Positions 4,870-19,495 of a DNA stretch of 45,969 bases are shown here, piece after piece (the stretch's first letter is position 1; the number at the start of each line of letters is the position of its first letter). The position numbers and the translations under genes were made by a program. The notes beneath the pieces are model-generated. The model searched no databases and was not told the origin of the DNA. It saw nothing but the letters and a program-made list of their open reading frames with translations. Source of the DNA: a virus (taxonomy: Duplodnaviria; Caudoviricetes); IMG/VR virus record IMGVR_UViG_3300029822_000019, positions 1 through 45,969 of that record. One strand, 5' to 3'.

Positions 4870-5103
4870 TTATTCAATATCAATTCCTTCATCGATCTGC
4901 CTGATTCTCTCCTGGCATATATGAATGATCTTCTCGTAGTCCAATCTCCTGGGATCGGTGCCTTTTTTCCTGAGCACTCTTTTGACAATGTCTGCATCGA
5001 ACGGATTAAGTTTATATTCAATCCAAATGTCCCATGGTTGGATCTTATGCTTTGAGTAGTCAGATGATCCTACATTGTGCCCACGAACGTCACTCTTTTC
5101 CAT
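4870..5103 (-). CDS. DUF3310-like protein (putative nucleotide kinase, T7 gp1.7-like)
   Basis: VGSSDY..IQPWD.....LN.F....VK..LR..G.....DYEK pattern; coupled to thyX. Confidence 0.6.
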   Translation of the reverse strand: MEKSDVRGHNVGSSDYSKHKIQPWDIWIEYKLNPFDADIVKRVLRKKGTDPRRLDYEKIIHICQERIRQIDEGIDIE

Positions 5104-5749
5104 CTCCGAAAATCTCAGGTAGTACCTCCTTGAATATATCCCTCAAAGGGATCATCAACTCTCGCATCTGTGGATGAGCCGCAGGTGAACACCTTTGCCG
5201 GAAGATCTCCCTCCATTCTCTGAGGTTGGCAGTGACAACGATTTCGGTCTTCAAGGAATTCGGCAGAACAGATCTTGCTTCCTGAGGGTTCCAACCTACC
5301 TGGATCATACTCTTATAAATGTCCTGAGAATTCTGCATAGCATTAAGCCAAAGGATTTCACCGTGTGACTGAAGACCAAAAGTAGATTGATCCCCTTCAC
5401 CAGGTTCGATCTTTGACCAGGACGGAATAATGAAAGTAAGTTGATTGTCAAACTTGTCATTTGAGTAATTACAATATCGGGTAGACTCCTGAGAGAAGGA
5501 GGCTATCCTGTGCCGAACCAATTCATGTGAGACCCCCCTGTCACAAATGAACTTCACAGAAACAGACTGATGTTCGACCACGGACAAATGACCCCGACCG
5601 ACTATCATTTCCACAAACCTACTTGCTGAGTCCTCAGTGATTTTGTCCTCAGATTTATAGCAAGTACGACCAGCCATTTCAATGGCTTTAAGGATCTGAC
5701 TCCTATCTATAGGAGTCAAGATCTCAAACGATGGTTTTATTAGTCTCAT
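5090..5749 (-). CDS. thyX: FAD-dependent thymidylate synthase
   Basis: GHLSVVEH, HELVRHRIASFSQESTRY (ThyX signature), EARSVLPN, NLREW, AHPQMR. Confidence 0.95.
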   Translation of the reverse strand: MRLIKPSFEILTPIDRSQILKAIEMAGRTCYKSEDKITEDSASRFVEMIVGRGHLSVVEHQSVSVKFICDRGVSHELVRHRIASFSQESTRYCNYSNDKFDNQLTFIIPSWSKIEPGEGDQSTFGLQSHGEILWLNAMQNSQDIYKSMIQVGWNPQEARSVLPNSLKTEIVVTANLREWREIFRQRCSPAAHPQMRELMIPLRDIFKEVLPEIFGDGKE

Positions 5750-5755
5750 AGCTTT

Positions 5756-6199
5756 TTATTTTGTACCAGTTGAACCGAATCCCCCTGCCCCTCTTTCGGT
5801 AGACTCAGGATATAACTCACTCACTGTGTCCACCACTTCGATACCTTCATAAGATACCGGAACCAAAAGCATCTGGACCAATTTCTCACCAGGCAAAAGT
5901 TCCTGGACGTCCATTCCTATATTAGTAACATGCAGGTGTACCTCCCCCTGGTAGTCCTCATCAACTACACAGGCCCCGACCTGAAGATGTTTCTTTGTGG
6001 CCACACCTGATTTGTTCATCACGATCAAGGCAAAGCCTTCAGGAACCTGAACATGAATCCCCGATGGGATGTTTACGTCTTGACCTGGAGCAAGCCAGTG
6101 TGATCCTGGAAAGTCATTTGGGATATAGAAGTCAATCCCGGCCGATTTCTCTGTGCCCCGTGTTGGGGTCTTTACGTCTCTTACTTTAGTGATTTTCAT
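5756..6199 (-). CDS. dut: Trimeric dUTPase
   Basis: SAGIDF, KSG, VVDEDYQGE, ERGAGGFGSTG. Confidence 0.93.
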   Translation of the reverse strand: MKITKVRDVKTPTRGTEKSAGIDFYIPNDFPGSHWLAPGQDVNIPSGIHVQVPEGFALIVMNKSGVATKKHLQVGACVVDEDYQGEVHLHVTNIGMDVQELLPGEKLVQMLLVPVSYEGIEVVDTVSELYPESTERGAGGFGSTGTK

Positions 6200-6204
6200 A
6201 CGCT

Positions 6205-7524
6205 TTACTTTTTAAAAATTTGATTATAGAATAAGTCAAACACCTTGGCCTTATAAGACTCAGGGGTTTGTCTGAGTTGATCATTCTTGAGTGGAACCTT
6301 TTCACGGTCCAGGATTTCATCCGGGAGCAGACCTCTGAAGGTATCTTTCAAATGCTTCTTTTCGATCCTCTCTGAATAAGGGAGAGCCAGGGCATACTTG
6401 ACTACATCATGTGAGAGGAAAGGATTTCGTAGTTCGATGGTGTACCTCATCGAGGCCCTGTCCAGGCGAGGCAGATGATAGAATGGAAGTTCTTCAAATA
6501 CATCAGACTTCTGAGAGTCATAGGTCTTGATGCGCCTGTACCCTCCAAACAGTTCATCCGCTCCGTCTCCTGTCAATACGATCTTTTCAGGAACCACTCC
6601 CAGAAGTTTATGTTGAGGGATCACTGAACCAAGATCGACGGGGGTTTCATTCCAGAGAAAACTTTCGGCCATTTCCTGATCAATATCATAAGTCAAGTAG
6701 GTCAAATCAATACCAAGGAATTGGGCCAATAAATTGGCATATAAGGCCTCATTATTCTCCACTGAATAAAAGGTATTGGTTGAGCCCAAATCATTCAGGA
6801 TTCGGGCTATTATGGATGAATCCAAACCTCCTGAGACCAATGTTCCAACCTGATATGTTTTAGAGATCAATCTCCTTTCAACAGCCCTATATAATAAGGT
6901 CCGGAGGTCCTCCTTCGGTTGGTTCTTGGTCCAATCGAAATAAGGATACGGATCAACAATCAAGATCCGTCCGGAGACAAAAACATAGAGCCTGTTTGGC
7001 ATGATCCGGCGTACGCCTTCCCACGGTGTTCGATCGTCTGTGTTATACCCCCATTTGTAGACTGAACTCTTGTATAGTTCATCGAATGCTTGGTTCCGGA
7101 CCAAAGGCCGGATCTCTGAGCAGATTTCACCCCTTTCATTATAGTATAGTTGTTTCTTCCCTAAGGGGTCAGTGAAGCAATACATGAATCCATTTGGGGT
7201 GACGTGGACGATAGACCAAAACCCATCCCAATTGTTCGCCTCCTCCAGGATGTCCCGGATGTTCTCAGAGTTGAACAGGTCAAGCAGATACTCAACGTCT
7301 GAAGTGTATTTCATAGGGATGTTGAAGATCTCCCCATTGAAGAGAAGAAGTCCCCCATCCTTGAGCTTAAGGGGTTGTTCCCATCCATCCCCTTCAACAG
7401 TCTGGATCGGAAGGCGATGGTGCCCAAAGTAGAAACCGAACCCCTGTTCGTAATGAGATTCGATCCCCCTGTGTTTCAACAGGGGGATTCGATCAAGATC
7501 TCGTGTTATTATTATTCCGCACAT
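6205..7524 (-). CDS. Asparagine-synthetase-B-like glutamine amidotransferase
   Basis: N-terminal MCGI (Ntn Cys), HRG, FNGEIFN, DPLGKKQLYY, PP-loop SGGLDSS, TGDGADELFGGY, ELRNPFL. Confidence 0.9.
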   Translation of the reverse strand: MCGIIITRDLDRIPLLKHRGIESHYEQGFGFYFGHHRLPIQTVEGDGWEQPLKLKDGGLLLFNGEIFNIPMKYTSDVEYLLDLFNSENIRDILEEANNWDGFWSIVHVTPNGFMYCFTDPLGKKQLYYNERGEICSEIRPLVRNQAFDELYKSSVYKWGYNTDDRTPWEGVRRIMPNRLYVFVSGRILIVDPYPYFDWTKNQPKEDLRTLLYRAVERRLISKTYQVGTLVSGGLDSSIIARILNDLGSTNTFYSVENNEALYANLLAQFLGIDLTYLTYDIDQEMAESFLWNETPVDLGSVIPQHKLLGVVPEKIVLTGDGADELFGGYRRIKTYDSQKSDVFEELPFYHLPRLDRASMRYTIELRNPFLSHDVVKYALALPYSERIEKKHLKDTFRGLLPDEILDREKVPLKNDQLRQTPESYKAKVFDLFYNQIFKK

Positions 7525-7770: not shown

Positions 7771-7830
7771 CAAATGTACGATATATTTTTCAGATAAAAA
7801 AATTATTTCAGATAAAAGTGAAATTTATTT
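7771..7830 (-). promoter_or_regulatory. Conserved phage promoter/operator, copy 2
   Basis: caaatgtacg...tttttcagataaaaaaattatttcag...gtgaaa on the plus strand. Confidence 0.8.
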
Positions 7831-8322
7831 TCCATGGTTCTCGTGGTAACCATATTCGATCTCGGCTTCTTTCCTTGCTTCAACAGCTTCTTCGAAACTG
7901 GTAAACTCCCCGAGATTCTTCACCTTTCGATCTACACTTATATAAGCTTTCCATTTATTCTTCAGGGGCCTGAAGCAAACCCCGACTACCCCTGAAGTGT
8001 TATTTGAGTTCATTTTTCTGTTCTTCTGATTCTCCTTATGGGGTACGTCTCTCAGGAGGTTGATCTCATTGTCTGACTGGTCATGTTCTATGTGATCGAT
8101 CTCTTCTTTAGGCCATTCTCCGTGAATATATAACCAAGCGAGTCGATGAGCTCTGTATGGTTTCTGATCTATAGTTATTTGTCTATGTCCATACCCGTGA
8201 GTACATCCTGCTAAGTCCCCTTTCTTTGCTCTACCTCTTTGAACCAACCAATGAAAGTCTCCTGTCTCAGGATTATAAGACAGGAGTTCCTTCAATCGTT
8301 CCGATGTTAGTAGATTACCCAT
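7825..8322 (-). CDS. HNH-AP2 homing endonuclease
   Basis: LSYNPETGDFHW, AHRLAWLYIHGEWP, IDHI...DN, NTSGVVGV...KWKAYI...LGEF...EAVEARKEAE. Confidence 0.9.
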   Translation of the reverse strand: MGNLLTSERLKELLSYNPETGDFHWLVQRGRAKKGDLAGCTHGYGHRQITIDQKPYRAHRLAWLYIHGEWPKEEIDHIEHDQSDNEINLLRDVPHKENQKNRKMNSNNTSGVVGVCFRPLKNKWKAYISVDRKVKNLGEFTSFEEAVEARKEAEIEYGYHENHGK

Positions 8323-9050
8323 TGGCTCAGTTCTTTGTGATAAGCGTGGAAACTACCAGCATAATAGTTTAGAGCCCCACATTTCAATCCCGGATAAACA
8401 GATTGGAGTTCATCAACCACATATTGTTGAATGGCATGAGTAAGCCAAATGTCGATTGCGAAATGATTAAAATAATCATTGCTCCGGATGTAATACAGGA
8501 CCATCAATTTGTTGTTCCTGATGAGGAACTGATATGAGATCGAGCAGGGGATTCGGGTTTGAAACCCTGCAGAGTCTTTTGTGTCCACAGGATCAAATAT
8601 CATAACCATCGCCCTCCTGGTGTGTTCATCATCCTTCAGAGCAGCAATGGCGTTGTCCAATTGCCCCATGTGATTGATCCTTTCCGAATAGGTGTAGTCA
8701 AATTTATCCCCCTCAGCTTTCGACATTAGTTTCTGCCAAAGGTCCAGGCGTACCTTATATGAGTTCCCGGGATTGAGTCCAGCCCTGTTCAAGCGGTCTC
8801 CGAGTTCAGTCCAGCAATAGTCTTCAATGTTCTTGGCTTCATCCTTAAAGATGAATTCCAGCATCTCCTTCTTCTTAAGGAAGGGCTTGGAGATAATGAA
8901 GTTGACTCCGATCAGTTCCTTGGTGTTCTGGTTCTTTCCCTCGAGCGCCTGGTTCTGATAATGTTTCACAGGGACTGTGATCCCTGATACTTTCAATTCG
9001 CGATCCATCTCTTGGATCATTTCTAAACAGTCTTTAAATATCCGTGCCAT
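8307..9050 (-). CDS. Thymidylate-synthase-fold enzyme, predicted dCMP-specific (dCMP hydroxymethylase-like)
   Basis: YTYSER, TRRA, catalytic PC169, YQF, RSND, SFHAY; Asp200 sits at the position of E. coli ThyA Asn177. Confidence 0.8.
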   Translation of the reverse strand: MARIFKDCLEMIQEMDRELKVSGITVPVKHYQNQALEGKNQNTKELIGVNFIISKPFLKKKEMLEFIFKDEAKNIEDYCWTELGDRLNRAGLNPGNSYKVRLDLWQKLMSKAEGDKFDYTYSERINHMGQLDNAIAALKDDEHTRRAMVMIFDPVDTKDSAGFQTRIPCSISYQFLIRNNKLMVLYYIRSNDYFNHFAIDIWLTHAIQQYVVDELQSVYPGLKCGALNYYAGSFHAYHKELSQWVIY

Positions 9051-10263
9051 TTTCTTTTTGTTTTACGAGTTCACAATACTTTTTACTTCCACAAAATTGA
9101 CAGACTTTTTCCTGAGCAGAATATCCCACCATCTGGCAAAAGTCATATTTGTTTTGATCAACATAGTTGTTCGGTTTGATCAGCCGTTTTTGAGTGTAGT
9201 CCTCCTCATGCCTGTTACCTTCCAGGAAGTCCTTAATCTGCTGAGTGATGAATGTACAGAACTCAACAGGCATAAACTTTCCAGTCTGTTTGATCAGCGA
9301 TCCATATTGTTTATTAGTCTGGGTAACATTCTTGGGGAAGAATACAAAATCATCCGGGCATCCTTGGATCTTGGCCCGTTCCCGGATGGTGAACGGGTAT
9401 AAGGTGTCACTCCTGAAGTGATTATCGAAGGCAGCGCCTCCGCCGGAGAGAACACCAGCGTGACCATTTACGTCAATCGGATAGAACCCTATTCTCAATT
9501 TGCGTTCCCCTTTCCGGTTGTAATAGGGGATGATATTATTGAGAGGAAGGTCCTTCAAATACCCCTGCAGTTCTCTGAGGGTGATCCGGTTCTCATCCAC
9601 TGATTTGTCAATATAGTCGGGATCAAAGTTGTATCGTCCCCAGCCACTGTAGATTGCATCAAGATCTAATCTTTCATTGTTCTCAGCGTCCGGGCTTATT
9701 TCCTCCAGGCGTTCGATGATAGTAGTATCATGCTCGAATTCTCCAGGTATGAAATAGAACCCCAATTCTCTGAGGGAGCCAATGACGAAGAGTCGTTTCC
9801 TATTCTTCTGAAGGTTACCATAGCCATGATTGTTGATCCACTCGAAGTGAATATCATAATCGGGCAAATTCTCCATGTACCAGGCCCAATCCGCCACGAT
9901 CAGTGATTTGGGTAGGTTATCCATCACAAAGAATTTTGGCCTCAGTTTTTGGACCGCCTCGATGAACTGAGGAATGTCTCCCTTATCTCCTGCATCGATT
10001 GCATTGTTCTTGTTGGCCCGCATATTAGAGAAGTTCCCGCACTCAGTGTGCCCGATGATAAGATCGAGATCCTGACATGCTTCGAGTTTCTCCTGGTCCA
10101 GGTCCTCAAATCGATCAATCATAAAACTACCGGGGAAATTATGTTCAAACGTGCCAGTATGATAGTACTGTCTCCACTCGATATTCCCAACTATGTCATA
10201 TCCTTGGCGTTTCGCTCCTATGAGCATGGAGCCGACCCCACAAATCATTCCAAGTGCTTTCAT
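9034..10263 (-). CDS. Divergent DNA cytosine-C5 methyltransferase-fold protein
   Basis: Motif I ICGVGS, IV GHTECGNFS, VI MDNL, VIII QKNRKRLF, IX TIRERAKIQGCPDDF, X QTGKFMP, in canonical order. Confidence 0.85.
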   Translation of the reverse strand: MKALGMICGVGSMLIGAKRQGYDIVGNIEWRQYYHTGTFEHNFPGSFMIDRFEDLDQEKLEACQDLDLIIGHTECGNFSNMRANKNNAIDAGDKGDIPQFIEAVQKLRPKFFVMDNLPKSLIVADWAWYMENLPDYDIHFEWINNHGYGNLQKNRKRLFVIGSLRELGFYFIPGEFEHDTTIIERLEEISPDAENNERLDLDAIYSGWGRYNFDPDYIDKSVDENRITLRELQGYLKDLPLNNIIPYYNRKGERKLRIGFYPIDVNGHAGVLSGGGAAFDNHFRSDTLYPFTIRERAKIQGCPDDFVFFPKNVTQTNKQYGSLIKQTGKFMPVEFCTFITQQIKDFLEGNRHEEDYTQKRLIKPNNYVDQNKYDFCQMVGYSAQEKVCQFCGSKKYCELVKQKENGTDI

Positions 10264-10264
10264 A

Positions 10265-10831
10265 TTAGTAGTTTGAATTGATTCTAAATAAATTGACTTG
10301 ATACTTCAGGGACCAGAGATCACATACCTCGTCGATCGACATACCTAAGTGATGGAAGATATTAAGATATAACTCCCAGATCTTTTTGAAGCGGGCTTCA
10401 AATATGTACAGGTCTACGAGGTACTGAGACCGGCGCCATTGCCTGTTCTTCAGAAGATTTGCCGTTACACCCAACTGGTAAACAACCTTAAGGACTTTCT
10501 CATCGACTGAGCAGGAATTCAGTTGGATTGATGAAGGAAGATTCTTGAGGTTCCAGCCATAAAGCAAATAGAGTTCGATCAGGAAGTTGAACCCGTCAAT
10601 CAATTCTTCTCTGAAATGATTTTCGTTCTTGCGGTCCTCCATTGCCTCCATGAGCTCCTCTGTGATCCTCCAGCAATACCTTTTGAAAACCTCTTGATCT
10701 TCGTAGGTGTCAATATCGAAGTGAGTGAATATCTCTCTCGCCTCGGGTTCATACAGAAACTTGATTTCTTTCTGTTTCTCGAATATCGTTTCAAGACTAT
10801 ATCTTATTGGGTTGAAGTCCTCGATGTTCAT
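10265..10831 (-). CDS. All-alpha (dimeric dUTPase/MazG-like) dNTP pyrophosphatase, possible dCTPase
   Basis: IFEKQKE, TEELMEA, REELIDGFNF (ExxE...ExxD metal site), KYQVNLFR. Confidence 0.7.
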   Translation of the reverse strand: MNIEDFNPIRYSLETIFEKQKEIKFLYEPEAREIFTHFDIDTYEDQEVFKRYCWRITEELMEAMEDRKNENHFREELIDGFNFLIELYLLYGWNLKNLPSSIQLNSCSVDEKVLKVVYQLGVTANLLKNRQWRRSQYLVDLYIFEARFKKIWELYLNIFHHLGMSIDEVCDLWSLKYQVNLFRINSNY

Positions 10832-11121
10832 TCCTTATCCTCTTTTTTAGAAGTTGGTTCCACACCATTGTGGTAGTTATTCAGAGCCCCGATATAGGCT
10901 ACCGCATCCAGGAGGTTGTCCTCCTTATGAGAGTAGGCTTCACGGGCCAGCTTGAGAGCTATTTGGAAGTAGTAGATGTCCAGTGTGCTTACTTCCTTGT
11001 TGCACAGAACGGTCGCGATCTTAGCGGCCCGTTCATTACATTCAATGAAAGGCCCGTATTCTCTTTCTTTCTCTTCGGACCTTTCATTGATGATCTGGTT
11101 CGCTTTTTCCAGAATGTTCAT
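10828..11121 (-). CDS. DUF6378-like protein
   Basis: ILEKANQII..R...YG.F...A........LKLARE....KEDNLLDAVAY pattern. Confidence 0.65.
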   Translation of the reverse strand: MNILEKANQIINERSEEKEREYGPFIECNERAAKIATVLCNKEVSTLDIYYFQIALKLAREAYSHKEDNLLDAVAYIGALNNYHNGVEPTSKKEDKE

Positions 11122-12423: not shown

Positions 12424-12568
12424 GTAGGTCCTTTTTCTTGATTCCGGTCACTCTGTAGTGCTTGTCATGAATCCGAACCTTAATTGGTTTTTTAATCTCG
12501 CTTATTATTTCTATATCGGTCTGCCCCTCCAGGAGAGCCTTCAATTGTTCAAAGTCTATTTCTTCCAT
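12317..12568 (-). CDS. Hypothetical protein
   Basis: 83 aa; start overlaps the deaminase stop codon. Confidence 0.55.
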   Translation of the reverse strand: MEEIDFEQLKALLEGQTDIEIISEIKKPIKVRIHDKHYRVTGIKKKDLLEYFDNVPDQDQQEAAPVPGVQVHGEQSSEEEVLS

Positions 12569-13455
12569 TACAGTTCAATTTTATCAACAACAATTCCTGC
12601 TTGTCTCAATAAGTCGATCCCTTCAGTGATTCGATACTCCTCCGCATATACTACTCTCTTTATTCCGGACTGGATGATCAGCTTTGAACATTCCATGCAA
12701 GGAGAAACTAAAGTGTAAAGGGTTGCATCCTTACTACTGTTAGTCGACTGAGCTACCTTTGTAATCGCGTTAGCCTCCGCGTGTAGCACGTACGGGTGAG
12801 TCTTTATATCTGTATACTTAATTGTTTGAAAGGTCCTTGGATCAACAGAGTCAAGATAAAACTGAGCTGCTTCATTTGGATCGTCGAACCTTTTATGGAT
12901 ATATTTTTCAGGAGTCCAGATTGCTGCTACCCATTTATTTCTGGAGGCGTCAAAAGAAACGCCAGGATGCTCACAAGTATTTTCCATTCTTTGACTGCGA
13001 TGAATTGAGTTGTATCTGTTTGAACACCATTCCAGATTGATCAACCTGTTGTCTTCAACATTGTAATTTATATGATTGACTTGAGTATAAAAGTCAGGAT
13101 CTGGATTTTCTACAAAGGTACTCATTATGACATGAGATACTTTCCTTTGAATCCCCATGATCTTACAACATTGATATTTTCCTGAGGTATGAAGCCATTT
13201 AGAAATTGGTTCACCGTTCTTGAAGATGTTACCTTCTGTATCTGCTTCAATTCCGAGAAAATAAGGATGAGGTTTTCTCTGATATTCAATGTACTCACAT
13301 TCGTTCTTAAACCCTGACACTGTACCATTGTAACCATCCGAGATGATCATTTGATCTTTGACTATGATAGCCCCGACTTTCAATCTTTTGGCGTAGGAAT
13401 TCTCAGACCAGATCTGAGCCATACGCAAATACTGTTTGTCAAACTTTTCCAACAT
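12568..13455 (-). CDS. dCMP deaminase with in-frame HNH-AP2 insertion
   Basis: KVGAIIVKD..IISDGYNG (aa 26-44), HAEANAI (225-231), SPCMEC (251-256); aa ~55-217 are an HNH/AP2-like domain. Confidence 0.88.
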   Translation of the reverse strand: MLEKFDKQYLRMAQIWSENSYAKRLKVGAIIVKDQMIISDGYNGTVSGFKNECEYIEYQRKPHPYFLGIEADTEGNIFKNGEPISKWLHTSGKYQCCKIMGIQRKVSHVIMSTFVENPDPDFYTQVNHINYNVEDNRLINLEWCSNRYNSIHRSQRMENTCEHPGVSFDASRNKWVAAIWTPEKYIHKRFDDPNEAAQFYLDSVDPRTFQTIKYTDIKTHPYVLHAEANAITKVAQSTNSSKDATLYTLVSPCMECSKLIIQSGIKRVVYAEEYRITEGIDLLRQAGIVVDKIEL

Positions 13456-17542: not shown

Positions 17543-19495
17543 TTAGTCTTTTTTATAGAACTTCGTCACATATCCGTCCGCCACGAGAGGAAGTCCCGGA
17601 GCCCATGGAACTTCTTGGCCCATTATGTATTCCATTCTTTTTAGTTGTTCATCCGAATCAATCTCAGGTACTTCGCAAATGACTTCGTCATGTACGTGCA
17701 TCACCATTTTAAAACCTGCAGACCGGAGGGCCTGCATGGAATAAGCAAGCAGGTCTCTTGATATGGCCTGGACAATGTTCTCTACCAGTTTACCCCCGTA
17801 TGTTTCTATAGAGGTCCACTGTTTAATTACTTGATCCATGCCTTTGAAGACTATGCTTTCCATTCCAAATTTATTGACCCCCATTTGAGGTTGCTTATAG
17901 AAAAGGCTCCGCCCAGAGGGGAGTTCAATCCTGAATATGTCACCATCATAGTGGAACCCCAAAGAACGAAGCCTCATTGATTTTCTTGTCTTGATAGTAT
18001 GGATTGCGCAGGTCTCTACATCAGACCAGAGTTGAACTATTTTAGGATTCGCCTTTCTCCATTTTCTTACTACCAGTTTTCTCTCATGCGCAGGTATTTT
18101 GCCCTCCCGGTCCATTTTGGCCATTGCTCCTTCAGCACCCTGATACCCGAGAGCAAGCTCGGCCGTCTTTCCTCTCTGCCTCAATTCAGATCCTTTCGTT
18201 ACTGATTCTATTGGCACTCCAAACATCATAGCCGCTGAGGCCTCATATATCTTACCATGAGTCTTGAATACATCCAGGCGCCACTCTTCTTGAGCTACCC
18301 AAGATAATACACGGGCCTCAATAGCACTAAAGTCGGAGACTGCGAATGTATATCCTTCAGGAGCGATGAGTGCGGTTCGAATGAGTTCAGACAGGACGTC
18401 CGGGATGTTATCATATAACATTGTGATCAGGTCATAATCTCCTGAGGCTACCACCTTACGAGCTTGATCAAGATCCTTCATGTGGTTCTGAGGAAGGTTC
18501 TGTAATTGGATTAATCGACCGGCCCAGCGGCCTGTTCTGTTTGCGCCATAGAATTGGAAGAGCCCGTGAGCACGTCCATCCTCGCAGGCGCAATTGAGCA
18601 TTGATACATATTTCTTTGTGGAGGACTTTGACAGTTTCAACCTACCATCGAGAACCTCCGAGACAGCCGCATCATCAGACTCATCCAGGAGTTCAAGCAC
18701 TGAATCTTTCGCCAGGGTATGTACATTTTTTCCTAAGGCATCACTCAGCCATTCCTTAAGCTGTGATGGGCTGTTCGGGTTCTCTACATCAGTAAGTTCT
18801 TTCATTCGTTCAGTGACTTCGTCTCCGAACCTATTATCAATGTCCACTGCATTTTGAGCCATCTCCAAATCAATCAAAACCCCTGCATCATTAATCTCCT
18901 GATCAATTATGTAGTTGGTTCTCTCAAAGTCAGGAAGTTCAAAGTGTCCCAACCTGTGATCTATTTCTCGTTCTGCTTCCACGTCGTTTATACAGTACAA
19001 TTTGAATTCGTCCCACTTCTCCGGATCATGCCATGGAAAGTTCCTACTTCGCATATCATTCACCTTTGTTGGTTTGCAGGGGTTGCAAAAGTACCGAATT
19101 AATGCCTTACCTGTTGATAGTTTTCCCTTCTCTTCTAACTTCAAAGCCTTTGAAACCAGGTCCAAAGAAAGCGGAAGACCACAATATGCGGCTTTCACTG
19201 CGGAACAATACCACTGATCGATTGGAATATCGTAGCCATATTGACGAAAGGCGTTACGCTCGAATGTAGCATTGTGAGCCCATTTCTGTATGGAAGGATC
19301 GAGCAGACCATCGATGAACTCCTGAGGAAGTTCTTCCCCTTGTGCCAGGTCTATGATCCTGATTGGATCATCATCGAAGGCATAAGCTACCAGGAGAATC
19401 TCGAAGTCGAGTGATTGAGTGTATTTGTAAGCTCCTGAGGTTTTAATGTCCACGGAGCTAAAGGTCTCTATATCTATATGTAATTTCTGAGCCAT
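17543..19495 (-). CDS. polA: DNA polymerase, family A
   Basis: Exo DIETFS; RTGRW, LQNLP, motif A DFSAIEAR, motif B KTAELALGY, motif C HVHDE. Confidence 0.95.
   Translation of the reverse strand: MAQKLHIDIETFSSVDIKTSGAYKYTQSLDFEILLVAYAFDDDPIRIIDLAQGEELPQEFIDGLLDPSIQKWAHNATFERNAFRQYGYDIPIDQWYCSAVKAAYCGLPLSLDLVSKALKLEEKGKLSTGKALIRYFCNPCKPTKVNDMRSRNFPWHDPEKWDEFKLYCINDVEAEREIDHRLGHFELPDFERTNYIIDQEINDAGVLIDLEMAQNAVDIDNRFGDEVTERMKELTDVENPNSPSQLKEWLSDALGKNVHTLAKDSVLELLDESDDAAVSEVLDGRLKLSKSSTKKYVSMLNCACEDGRAHGLFQFYGANRTGRWAGRLIQLQNLPQNHMKDLDQARKVVASGDYDLITMLYDNIPDVLSELIRTALIAPEGYTFAVSDFSAIEARVLSWVAQEEWRLDVFKTHGKIYEASAAMMFGVPIESVTKGSELRQRGKTAELALGYQGAEGAMAKMDREGKIPAHERKLVVRKWRKANPKIVQLWSDVETCAIHTIKTRKSMRLRSLGFHYDGDIFRIELPSGRSLFYKQPQMGVNKFGMESIVFKGMDQVIKQWTSIETYGGKLVENIVQAISRDLLAYSMQALRSAGFKMVMHVHDEVICEVPEIDSDEQLKRMEYIMGQEVPWAPGLPLVADGYVTKFYKKD

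Follow-up and report, generated by a model that had tools for sequence, protein, structure and literature searches.

CmoX, the carboxymethyltransferase of the CmoA/CmoX/CmoY system of Synechococcus phage S-B43, carries R350 in place of N304 of M.HhaI, and this residue contacts the carboxymethyl group of carboxy-SAM (PMC12783734). The available text of that report counts 4,257 CmoA sequences alongside 5,615 CmoX candidates in a survey that required SPPC and R350, and it also describes an amidase-bearing ligase cluster (PMC12783734). The M.MpeI N374K variant is likewise in print (PMC13288465), so two of the precedents that a first-pass annotation of the locus studied here had named, i.e., this engineered enzyme and a natural phage carboxymethyltransferase, can be traced to publications. 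Among thymidylate-synthase (TS) homologues, N177D makes dCMP the preferred substrate and, according to the accessible parts of the two papers, an acidic residue at L143 marks hydroxymethylases, a hydrophobic one marks methylases, and D169N marks flavin hydroxylases (PMC8670742; PMC13326640).

The window (the whole stretch of DNA analyzed here) comprises an entire phage record (45,969 bases; completeness rating, 100%). Among the 77 phage records matched by its portal protein, phages of Flavobacterium (32) and Bacteroides (31) predominate, followed by those of Parabacteroides (5) and Croceibacter (4), which points to a host that probably belongs to the Bacteroidota. The subject of this work is a 409-aa ORF matching PF00145 (E 1.7e-23), whose translation places ICGVGS at residues 7 to 12, TEC at 73 to 75, DNL at 115 to 117, RKRL at 155 to 158, and KQTGK at 325 to 329, each exactly where the first-pass annotation had read it (Table 1). 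An AF2 model built from 112 sequences reached a pLDDT of 95.9, and its best Foldseek matches are C5-methyltransferases (C5-MTases), including M.HaeIII, M.HhaI, and CmoX (8yf3; rank 11). Profile and fold, together with the catalytic Cys and the RxR of motif VIII, place the enzyme in the C5-MTase superfamily, and a target-recognition-sized region is kept between motifs VIII and IX of the model. The hallmarks of canonical 5mC methyltransferases, namely PC in motif IV, ENV in motif VI, GN in motif X, and the Phe of motif I, are absent. GKFMP of the enzyme falls on GNAVP of M.HaeIII in a profile alignment, with K329 on the Asn, and on GRMVP of S-B43 CmoX in a direct alignment, with K329 on R350. 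Judged from these alignments, K329 therefore occupies the motif X position claimed for it, and the enzyme shares with CmoX a cationic residue at the place of HhaI N304 (in the family mostly Lys, not Arg). A motif X Asn-to-Lys change in E. coli Dcm (N436K) is also said to permit the use of carboxy-SAM.

Table 1. Coordinates of the enzyme, its key residues, and the neighboring genes in the window
Feature	Position	Strand	Remarks
C5-methyltransferase-fold enzyme	9034..10263	(-)	409 aa; rebuilt motifs R31, H72, C75, D115, R155/R157, K329, and C-terminal four-Cys motif
K329 codon	9277..9279	(-)	Counterpart of CmoX R350 and of the Asn that canonical C5-MTases have in motif X
Catalytic C75 codon, motif IV	10039..10041	(-)	Invariant in the family
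C376-x11-C388-x2-C391-x5-C397	9073..9138	(-)	Candidate metal or Fe-S site (putative metal binding); absent in some subclades
Thymidylate-synthase homologue, dCMP-type	8307..9050	(-)	C169 (=C146), D200 (=N177D), D192 (=D169), R166 (=L143R); near-obligate partner
AsnB-like glutamine amidotransferase	6205..7524	(-)	MCG start, SGGLDS loop; optional partner, also found without the enzyme
dUTPase_2/MazG-like NTP pyrophosphatase	10265..10831	(-)	Predicted to clear a canonical dNTP; putative dCTPase
DUF6378 protein	10828..11121	(-)	Never together with the module's nucleotide-kinase-like gene in the examined loci
dCMP-deaminase homologue	12568..13455	(-)	In-frame HNH-containing insertion
Trimeric dUTPase	5756..6199	(-)	
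ThyX	5090..5749	(-)	Separate dTMP supply
Free-standing HNH endonuclease	7825..8322	(-)	Inserted between TS and AsnB
Family A DNA polymerase	17543..19495	(-)	Would incorporate the modified dCTP (putative role)

Conservation was counted in a close set, comprising the best 120 of 256 homologues, and in a distant set of 50%-identity representatives (the profile search returned 143 proteins at E<=1e-30; of 150 representatives listed, 5 canonical-looking ones, among them P0218 with Arg at motif X, were set aside before counting). Some of the locus scans relied on the motifs themselves, which makes conservation there partly a matter of construction, and the counts given come from other searches. Position 329 of the close set is Lys in 117 proteins, Arg in 2, and a gap in 1 (K or R in 119/120), and the 123 distant proteins covering it have K103, R12, N3, and 5 other residues (K or R in 115/123). 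GN and ENV, whose predominance the first-pass annotation had named as contrary to its interpretation, are thus not the prevailing motifs of the homologues. The catalytic C75 is kept in 119 of the best 120 of 256 and in 122/122 distant representatives, and the motif VIII arginines R155 and R157 are kept in 125/126 and 126/127 of the latter. The proposal of re-specialization instead of decay is supported. The expected conservation of EC, DNL, and GK proved true of GK (as K or R at 329) and of D115 (D118/E2 in the best 120 of 256; D102 and E25 of 127 in the distant set), but not of the Glu: position 74 of the distant set varies (E43, D21, S19, K11, N10, P8, and A6 of 122), so that EC is no motif and the shared feature is the loss of Pro. 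Similarly, the reported absence of the motif I Phe describes most members, although 18 of 120 close homologues retain it. Further features, which the first-pass annotation did not contain, are R31 (near-invariant, 107/108 distant representatives), H72 (94/115), and a C-terminal four-Cys motif, which 113 to 116 of the 120 close homologues share but some subclades lack, and the CxxC-x5-C spacing of which presumably resembles that of Fe-S loops. The E29 position is Glu or Asp in 107/108 distant representatives.

The family shows several insertions and rearrangements. The enzyme of locus L159 (5905-8256) contains an intein (Hint plus endonuclease), and several representatives (P-id proteins of 530 to 810 aa) are interrupted exactly where the catalytic Cys lies (profile position 74), which suggests a recurring insertion site. 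Loci L025 and L046 each have two copies of the methyltransferase-fold gene.

An ordinary 5mC methyltransferase with drifted motifs would agree with the Pfam, PHROG, and Atlas labels of the enzyme, with the fact that engineered Lys/Arg variants still methylate with SAM, and with the few members that keep Glu and Asn together (2 of 108 jointly covered). One of these few, encoded in L065 (8829-9950), has a motif VI Glu, a motif X Asn, and the same TS next to it in a locus lacking AsnB; it provides a natural control for K329. We nevertheless regard drift as highly improbable: the TIGR00675 score of 61 lies under the cut-off of 100.65, the changes are fixed family-wide in four motifs at once, and the enzyme is tied to a dCMP-modifying TS.

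The 155 family loci form 110 groups at 90% identity, 50 of which are flanked by 5 kb or more on either side. Among these 50 well-flanked groups, TS lies inside the locus in 47, and a dCMP deaminase, a MazG/PRA-PH pyrophosphatase, and AsnB are present in 44, 43, and 38, respectively; a kinase-like gene accompanies 21, and an N6_N4-type methyltransferase-like gene 17. Whole-record searches were directed at 44 loci on longer contigs and covered 43, leaving out L074. The family genomes are related, and these counts are not independent events; the unpublished L158 (genome G072) contributes one TS alignment row and one locus to the tallies, and none of the conclusions depends solely on it. Across the 155 loci, 42 have only the kinase-like gene, 29 have only DUF6378, and 0 have both, a pattern of mutual exclusion suggesting that DUF6378 may be a substitute nucleotide kinase. 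The in-frame insertion in the dCMP deaminase spans ∼160 aa with an HNH motif and matched neither an Rfam intron nor an intein family; the deaminase of the relative L010 is uninterrupted (136 aa) and 77% identical in the C-terminal part. A 77-aa ORF at window positions 4870-5103 (-) has no Pfam match at E 0.05 and, to the eye, resembles DUF3310/T7 gp1.7-like proteins. Bacteroides phage BF503P2 (L336), which has a related portal, encodes a carbamoyltransferase along with two TS homologues that belong to another type, so that this phage group swaps cytosine-modification cassettes.

The TS homologue is present in 43/43 family genomes searched, including 18/18 near-complete ones; the TS model was built from those loci, so its E-values are circular and presence is not. 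The 10-kb flanks of L074 contain no TS, and the partial locus L160 lacks one as well. Of 83 distinct TS sequences, the 77 covering the relevant positions all have C169, D192, D200, and R166, which correspond to E. coli C146, D169, N177, and L143, and the equivalents of the folate-site Glu/Trp/Asp are kept. The partner thus carries the Cys146 and N177D signature of dCMP-specific TS (77/77), lacks the acidic L143 residue of T4-type hydroxymethylases (Arg in 77/77), and lacks the D169N of flavin 5hodCMP synthases (Asp in 77/77). By these residues, it is of the dCMP type and matches none of the described product signatures. ThyX as a separate source of dTMP is consistent with a TS homologue that does not make dTMP. 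In phylogeny, the partner forms a clade (98/96) separate from T4 gp42, Xp12/PaMx74, RB69 gp48, SPO1, and ThyA, several of these landmark branches being long. In fold, the MilA and T4 gp42 hydroxymethylases come closest to it. The same Arg-type TS occurs in the cultured phages P21, KimJongPhill, and Huwbert, between kinase, pyrophosphatase, and Pol A, and the slot of the enzyme is taken in these phages by an unannotated ORF (4871-5932 in L334, 4527-5555 in L335, and 6205-6954 in L331) with no Pfam or NCBIfam match. By eye, the Cys and Arg spacing of two slot ORFs resembles a degenerate TS fold, making them possible functional analogues of the enzyme. TS of the Arg type is also encoded by the Streptomyces phage Zuko, beside the Streptomyces phage KimJongPhill, and by the Microbacterium phage Triscuit, beside the Microbacterium phage Huwbert. 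Since the dCMP-type TS is the partner in 43/43 genomes, usually with the pyrophosphatase and the deaminase, cytosine C5 is probably occupied before replication.

AsnB is found in 35/43 family genomes and in 15/18 near-complete records. The N-terminal Cys glutaminase and the SGGxDS loop identify it as an AsnB-type glutamine amidotransferase; 90/106 cluster ORFs start with MCG, 1 starts with MSG, and 15 have neither motif. Scanning with the AsnB alignment yielded 516 confirmed stretches. A methyltransferase-fold gene lies within 5 kb in none of the AsnB-selected loci L259-L330, although a few close relatives (e.g., L235 and L237) do have one. A PF00145 gene was found in 0/15 AsnB-selected viral records, 4 of them near-complete, and the PF00145-free AsnB records tested have TS in 5/5 and CmoA in 0/5, with an R/D/D signature identical in the TS of AsnB-selected loci (19/19). 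One such record, G056 (36 kb, with terminal repeats), shares the replication backbone with the window phage and has the order DUF6378-MazG-TS-AsnB-dUTPase, with no other recognizable modifier among 41 ORFs. Because AsnB occurs in complete genomes without a C5-methyltransferase, it needs no product of the methyltransferase-fold enzyme; it is an optional neighbor, not necessarily downstream of it. K or R at 329 is also kept where AsnB is missing (loci L015, L060, and L070; genomes G015, G042, and G048). Asparagine-synthetase-family enzymes act on carboxylates, for which reason the carboxylate used by AsnB probably comes from the TS branch, and R166 of TS may bind it. The N6_N4-like gene accompanies 17/38 groups that bear AsnB versus 0/12 that lack it (Fisher p=0.004, kinship not being corrected for), and in several loci it is fused to the enzyme. 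An NPPY-type amino-methyltransferase-like domain is fused to the C terminus of the enzyme in L017, L038, L059, L090, L112, L114, and L126 and, as a separate gene, occurs almost only where AsnB is present.

The first-pass annotation had proposed foremost that the enzyme may be a carboxymethyltransferase acting on cytosine. In its CmoX-like form, this reading would have carboxy-SAM from the host used on residual unmodified C, with AsnB making the amide of 5-carboxymethyl-C. It draws on the equivalence of K329 to CmoX R350, which mirrors M.MpeI N374K, on the intact glutamine-dependent AsnB of most family genomes, on the amidase-bearing ligase cluster in the accessible part of the CmoX paper, and on a possible source of the cofactor, since CmoA scored over the cut-off in 11/301 genomes sampled from the likely host phylum (the phylum to which G070 belongs, Saprospirales being the title of its locus L156). 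However, CmoA is thereby rare in that phylum and is encoded in 0/44 family genomes (0/1 own, i.e., the complete window genome, and 0/43 relatives), in a search that detected the S-B43 CmoA control at E 2.5e-34, which bears out the earlier remark that the phage lacks a CmoA-like carboxy-SAM synthase and contrasts with the CmoA and CmoX counts in the portion of the survey cited above. SPPC and the active-site Glu of motif VI are also lost, being replaced by GHTEC and DNL; by its demand for SPPC and R350, that survey, as far as its text is available, would have excluded the present family. SpCmoX branches with the canonical MTases and not with the enzyme family (quick tree, SH-aLRT 99; SpCmoX is a long branch). 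AsnB and TS persist in complete genomes that have no PF00145 gene, and TS and the pyrophosphatase, if they supply modified dCTP, would leave C5 occupied and block CmoX chemistry. The carboxy-SAM reading is thus weak, the CmoX-like scheme quite unlikely, and the enzyme probably does not use carboxy-SAM on plain cytosine; the headline claim gives way to the alternative offered beside it, action on an already modified base, which the TS association supports.

We consider it rather likely that the enzyme acts in some way on a pre-modified base. As a tentative preferred reading, to which we give somewhat less than an even chance, it would be a post-replicative C5-MTase-fold enzyme that exchanges or extends the side chain of a 5-substituted cytosine originating from the TS homologue and adds no first C5 group. 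The TS homologue would make 5-CH2-X-dCMP, the pyrophosphatase would remove dCTP, and Pol A would incorporate the modified nucleotide. The enzyme would then flip the modified base, and C75 would add to C6, aided by D115 and R155/R157; the invariance of C75 and the near-invariance of both arginines argue that covalent C6 chemistry is probably retained. Departure of X would leave an exocyclic methylene, to which an anionic co-substrate would add that K329, perhaps together with R31, would hold in the former SAM pocket. The anion would be bound by K329 at the place that the carboxymethyl group takes in CmoX, and E29 still suggests that the ligand contains a ribose. AsnB would act as a separate and optional step, its probable substrate being a carboxylate from the TS branch that it amidates. 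In vitro, C5-MTases can couple thiols to 5hmC in DNA, e.g., M.SssI with cysteamine (PMC7176277), so that exchange at the 5-methylene has a precedent. With the Pro of motif IV gone and Glu shortened to Asp in motif VI, there would be room for the side chain, a geometry argued from the alignment and the M.HhaI structure. In M.HhaI, the Pro next to the Cys crowds a C5 substituent, and Glu119 is reportedly essential. Against the preferred reading, some C-containing sites are strongly depleted in the window (CTAG, 4 versus 125 expected; GGATCC, 0 versus 31; both strands counted), which full cytosine replacement would not obviously require; unmodified C may therefore remain, and replacement may be incomplete. 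In the whole window, again with both strands counted, CATATG occurs 0 times of 21 expected and GATATC 2 of 31, and CCGG, GGCC, and GCGC are not depleted.

Covalent activation of C6 on a 5-CH2-X cytosine would allow side-chain removal as well as methylene exchange, and C5-MTases can remove 5-hydroxymethyl and 5-carboxyl groups without a cofactor. The enzyme could accordingly be an eraser that strips a hydroxymethyl or carboxyl side chain at chosen sequences to plain C, with K329 stabilizing the carboxylate, a role with which its eroded adenine-binding motifs would agree. We hold this to be very unlikely, as E29 and GxG are conserved, restored C would re-expose the DNA to restriction, and a fused methyltransferase-like domain points to building and not to removal. 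The retained GxG and ribose-binding E29 speak for alkylation of the side chain without exchange, by which SAM, carboxy-SAM, or an aminocarboxypropyl arm would be transferred to O or N of the C5 side chain while K329 holds the carboxylate. The E-to-D change and the Pro loss would shift the base in a compatible manner, and so would the fused amino-methyltransferase-like domain of several loci fit. Such chemistry does not need the catalytic Cys that is invariant here (122/122), and its carboxy-SAM version has no source; we deem it unlikely. A bolder version of the preferred exchange reading, which we put forward as doubtful, is that the enzyme is no longer an alkyltransferase at all: Cys-C6 activation would swap an anionic metabolite onto the 5-methylene in one optional branch of a widespread, hitherto undescribed TS/AsnB/NPPY pathway, wherein the Arg-bearing TS would make a carboxylate-bearing dCMP, AsnB would amidate it, and the NPPY methyltransferase would cap the amide.

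Collectively, these findings define a variant of the C5-MTase fold that is real, conserved, and undescribed and that forms part of an uncharacterized cytosine-hypermodification module. Our literature searches, whose coverage of subscription journals is thin, found no paper on the enzyme family or on the TS-AsnB core. The module is common in uncultured phages (∼110 distinct members at 90% identity in the fetched loci), the TS/AsnB core is far commoner than the methyltransferase-fold family, and together they predict cytosine bases hitherto undescribed; the gene set is small, and the same TS type is carried by cultured phages whose hosts are non-pathogenic laboratory organisms. If the exchange reading is true, a side reaction that C5-MTases are known to perform only in vitro would occur as a pathway in nature, and labeling of modified cytosines would be a candidate use of the enzyme. 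The wider pathway, if true, would imply a family of new DNA bases.

Compared with canonical C5-MTases (M.HhaI and M.HaeIII), the enzyme shares the fold, GxG, motif II Glu, Cys nucleophile, motif VIII RxR, and motif IX, but PC has become xC, ENV has become D[N/D]L, GN has become GK, the Phe is mostly lost, and R31, H72, and the four-Cys tail are gained. The engineered carboxymethyltransferases M.MpeI N374K and M.CviPI Y205K/R have Lys at the equivalent position; unlike the enzyme, they retain the canonical motifs everywhere else and have unmodified C as their target, according to the available part of that work (PMC13288465). With the S-B43 system (PMC12783734; PDB 8YF3), the locus has in common, as far as the accessible text goes, the C5-MTase fold, the cation at the motif X Asn, the Cys, and a nearby asparagine-synthetase homologue. 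It differs in having no CmoA, no SPPC, and no motif VI Glu, in being only ∼21% identical to CmoX over the C-terminal part with a separate place in the quick tree, in its ties to a dCMP-type TS, a pyrophosphatase, and a deaminase, and in an AsnB that has a glutaminase domain and occurs without the enzyme; in its working, the likeness to CmoX is limited to the cation at motif X. The flavin 5-hydroxy-dCMP synthase RB69 gp48 and the Xp12 5mdCMP synthase share the TS fold with N177D (PMC13326640, in the part available), whereas the present TS keeps D169 (77/77) and thus lacks the D169N hydroxylase signature of gp48, and it lies outside the Xp12/PaMx74 clade. The T4 5hmC pathway (gp42/gp56/gp1 plus glucosyltransferases) likewise combines a dCMP-type TS, a dCTPase, and a kinase with a subsequent DNA-level tailoring enzyme, and the MetaGPA hmC carbamoyltransferase system follows the same two-stage logic in the accessible portion of its description (PMC8670742). 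In contrast to the T4 pathway, the present TS carries L143R in place of the acidic residue and makes up a separate clade, and, in place of the glycosyl- or carbamoyltransferases of these two systems, the tailoring enzyme here has the C5-MTase fold.
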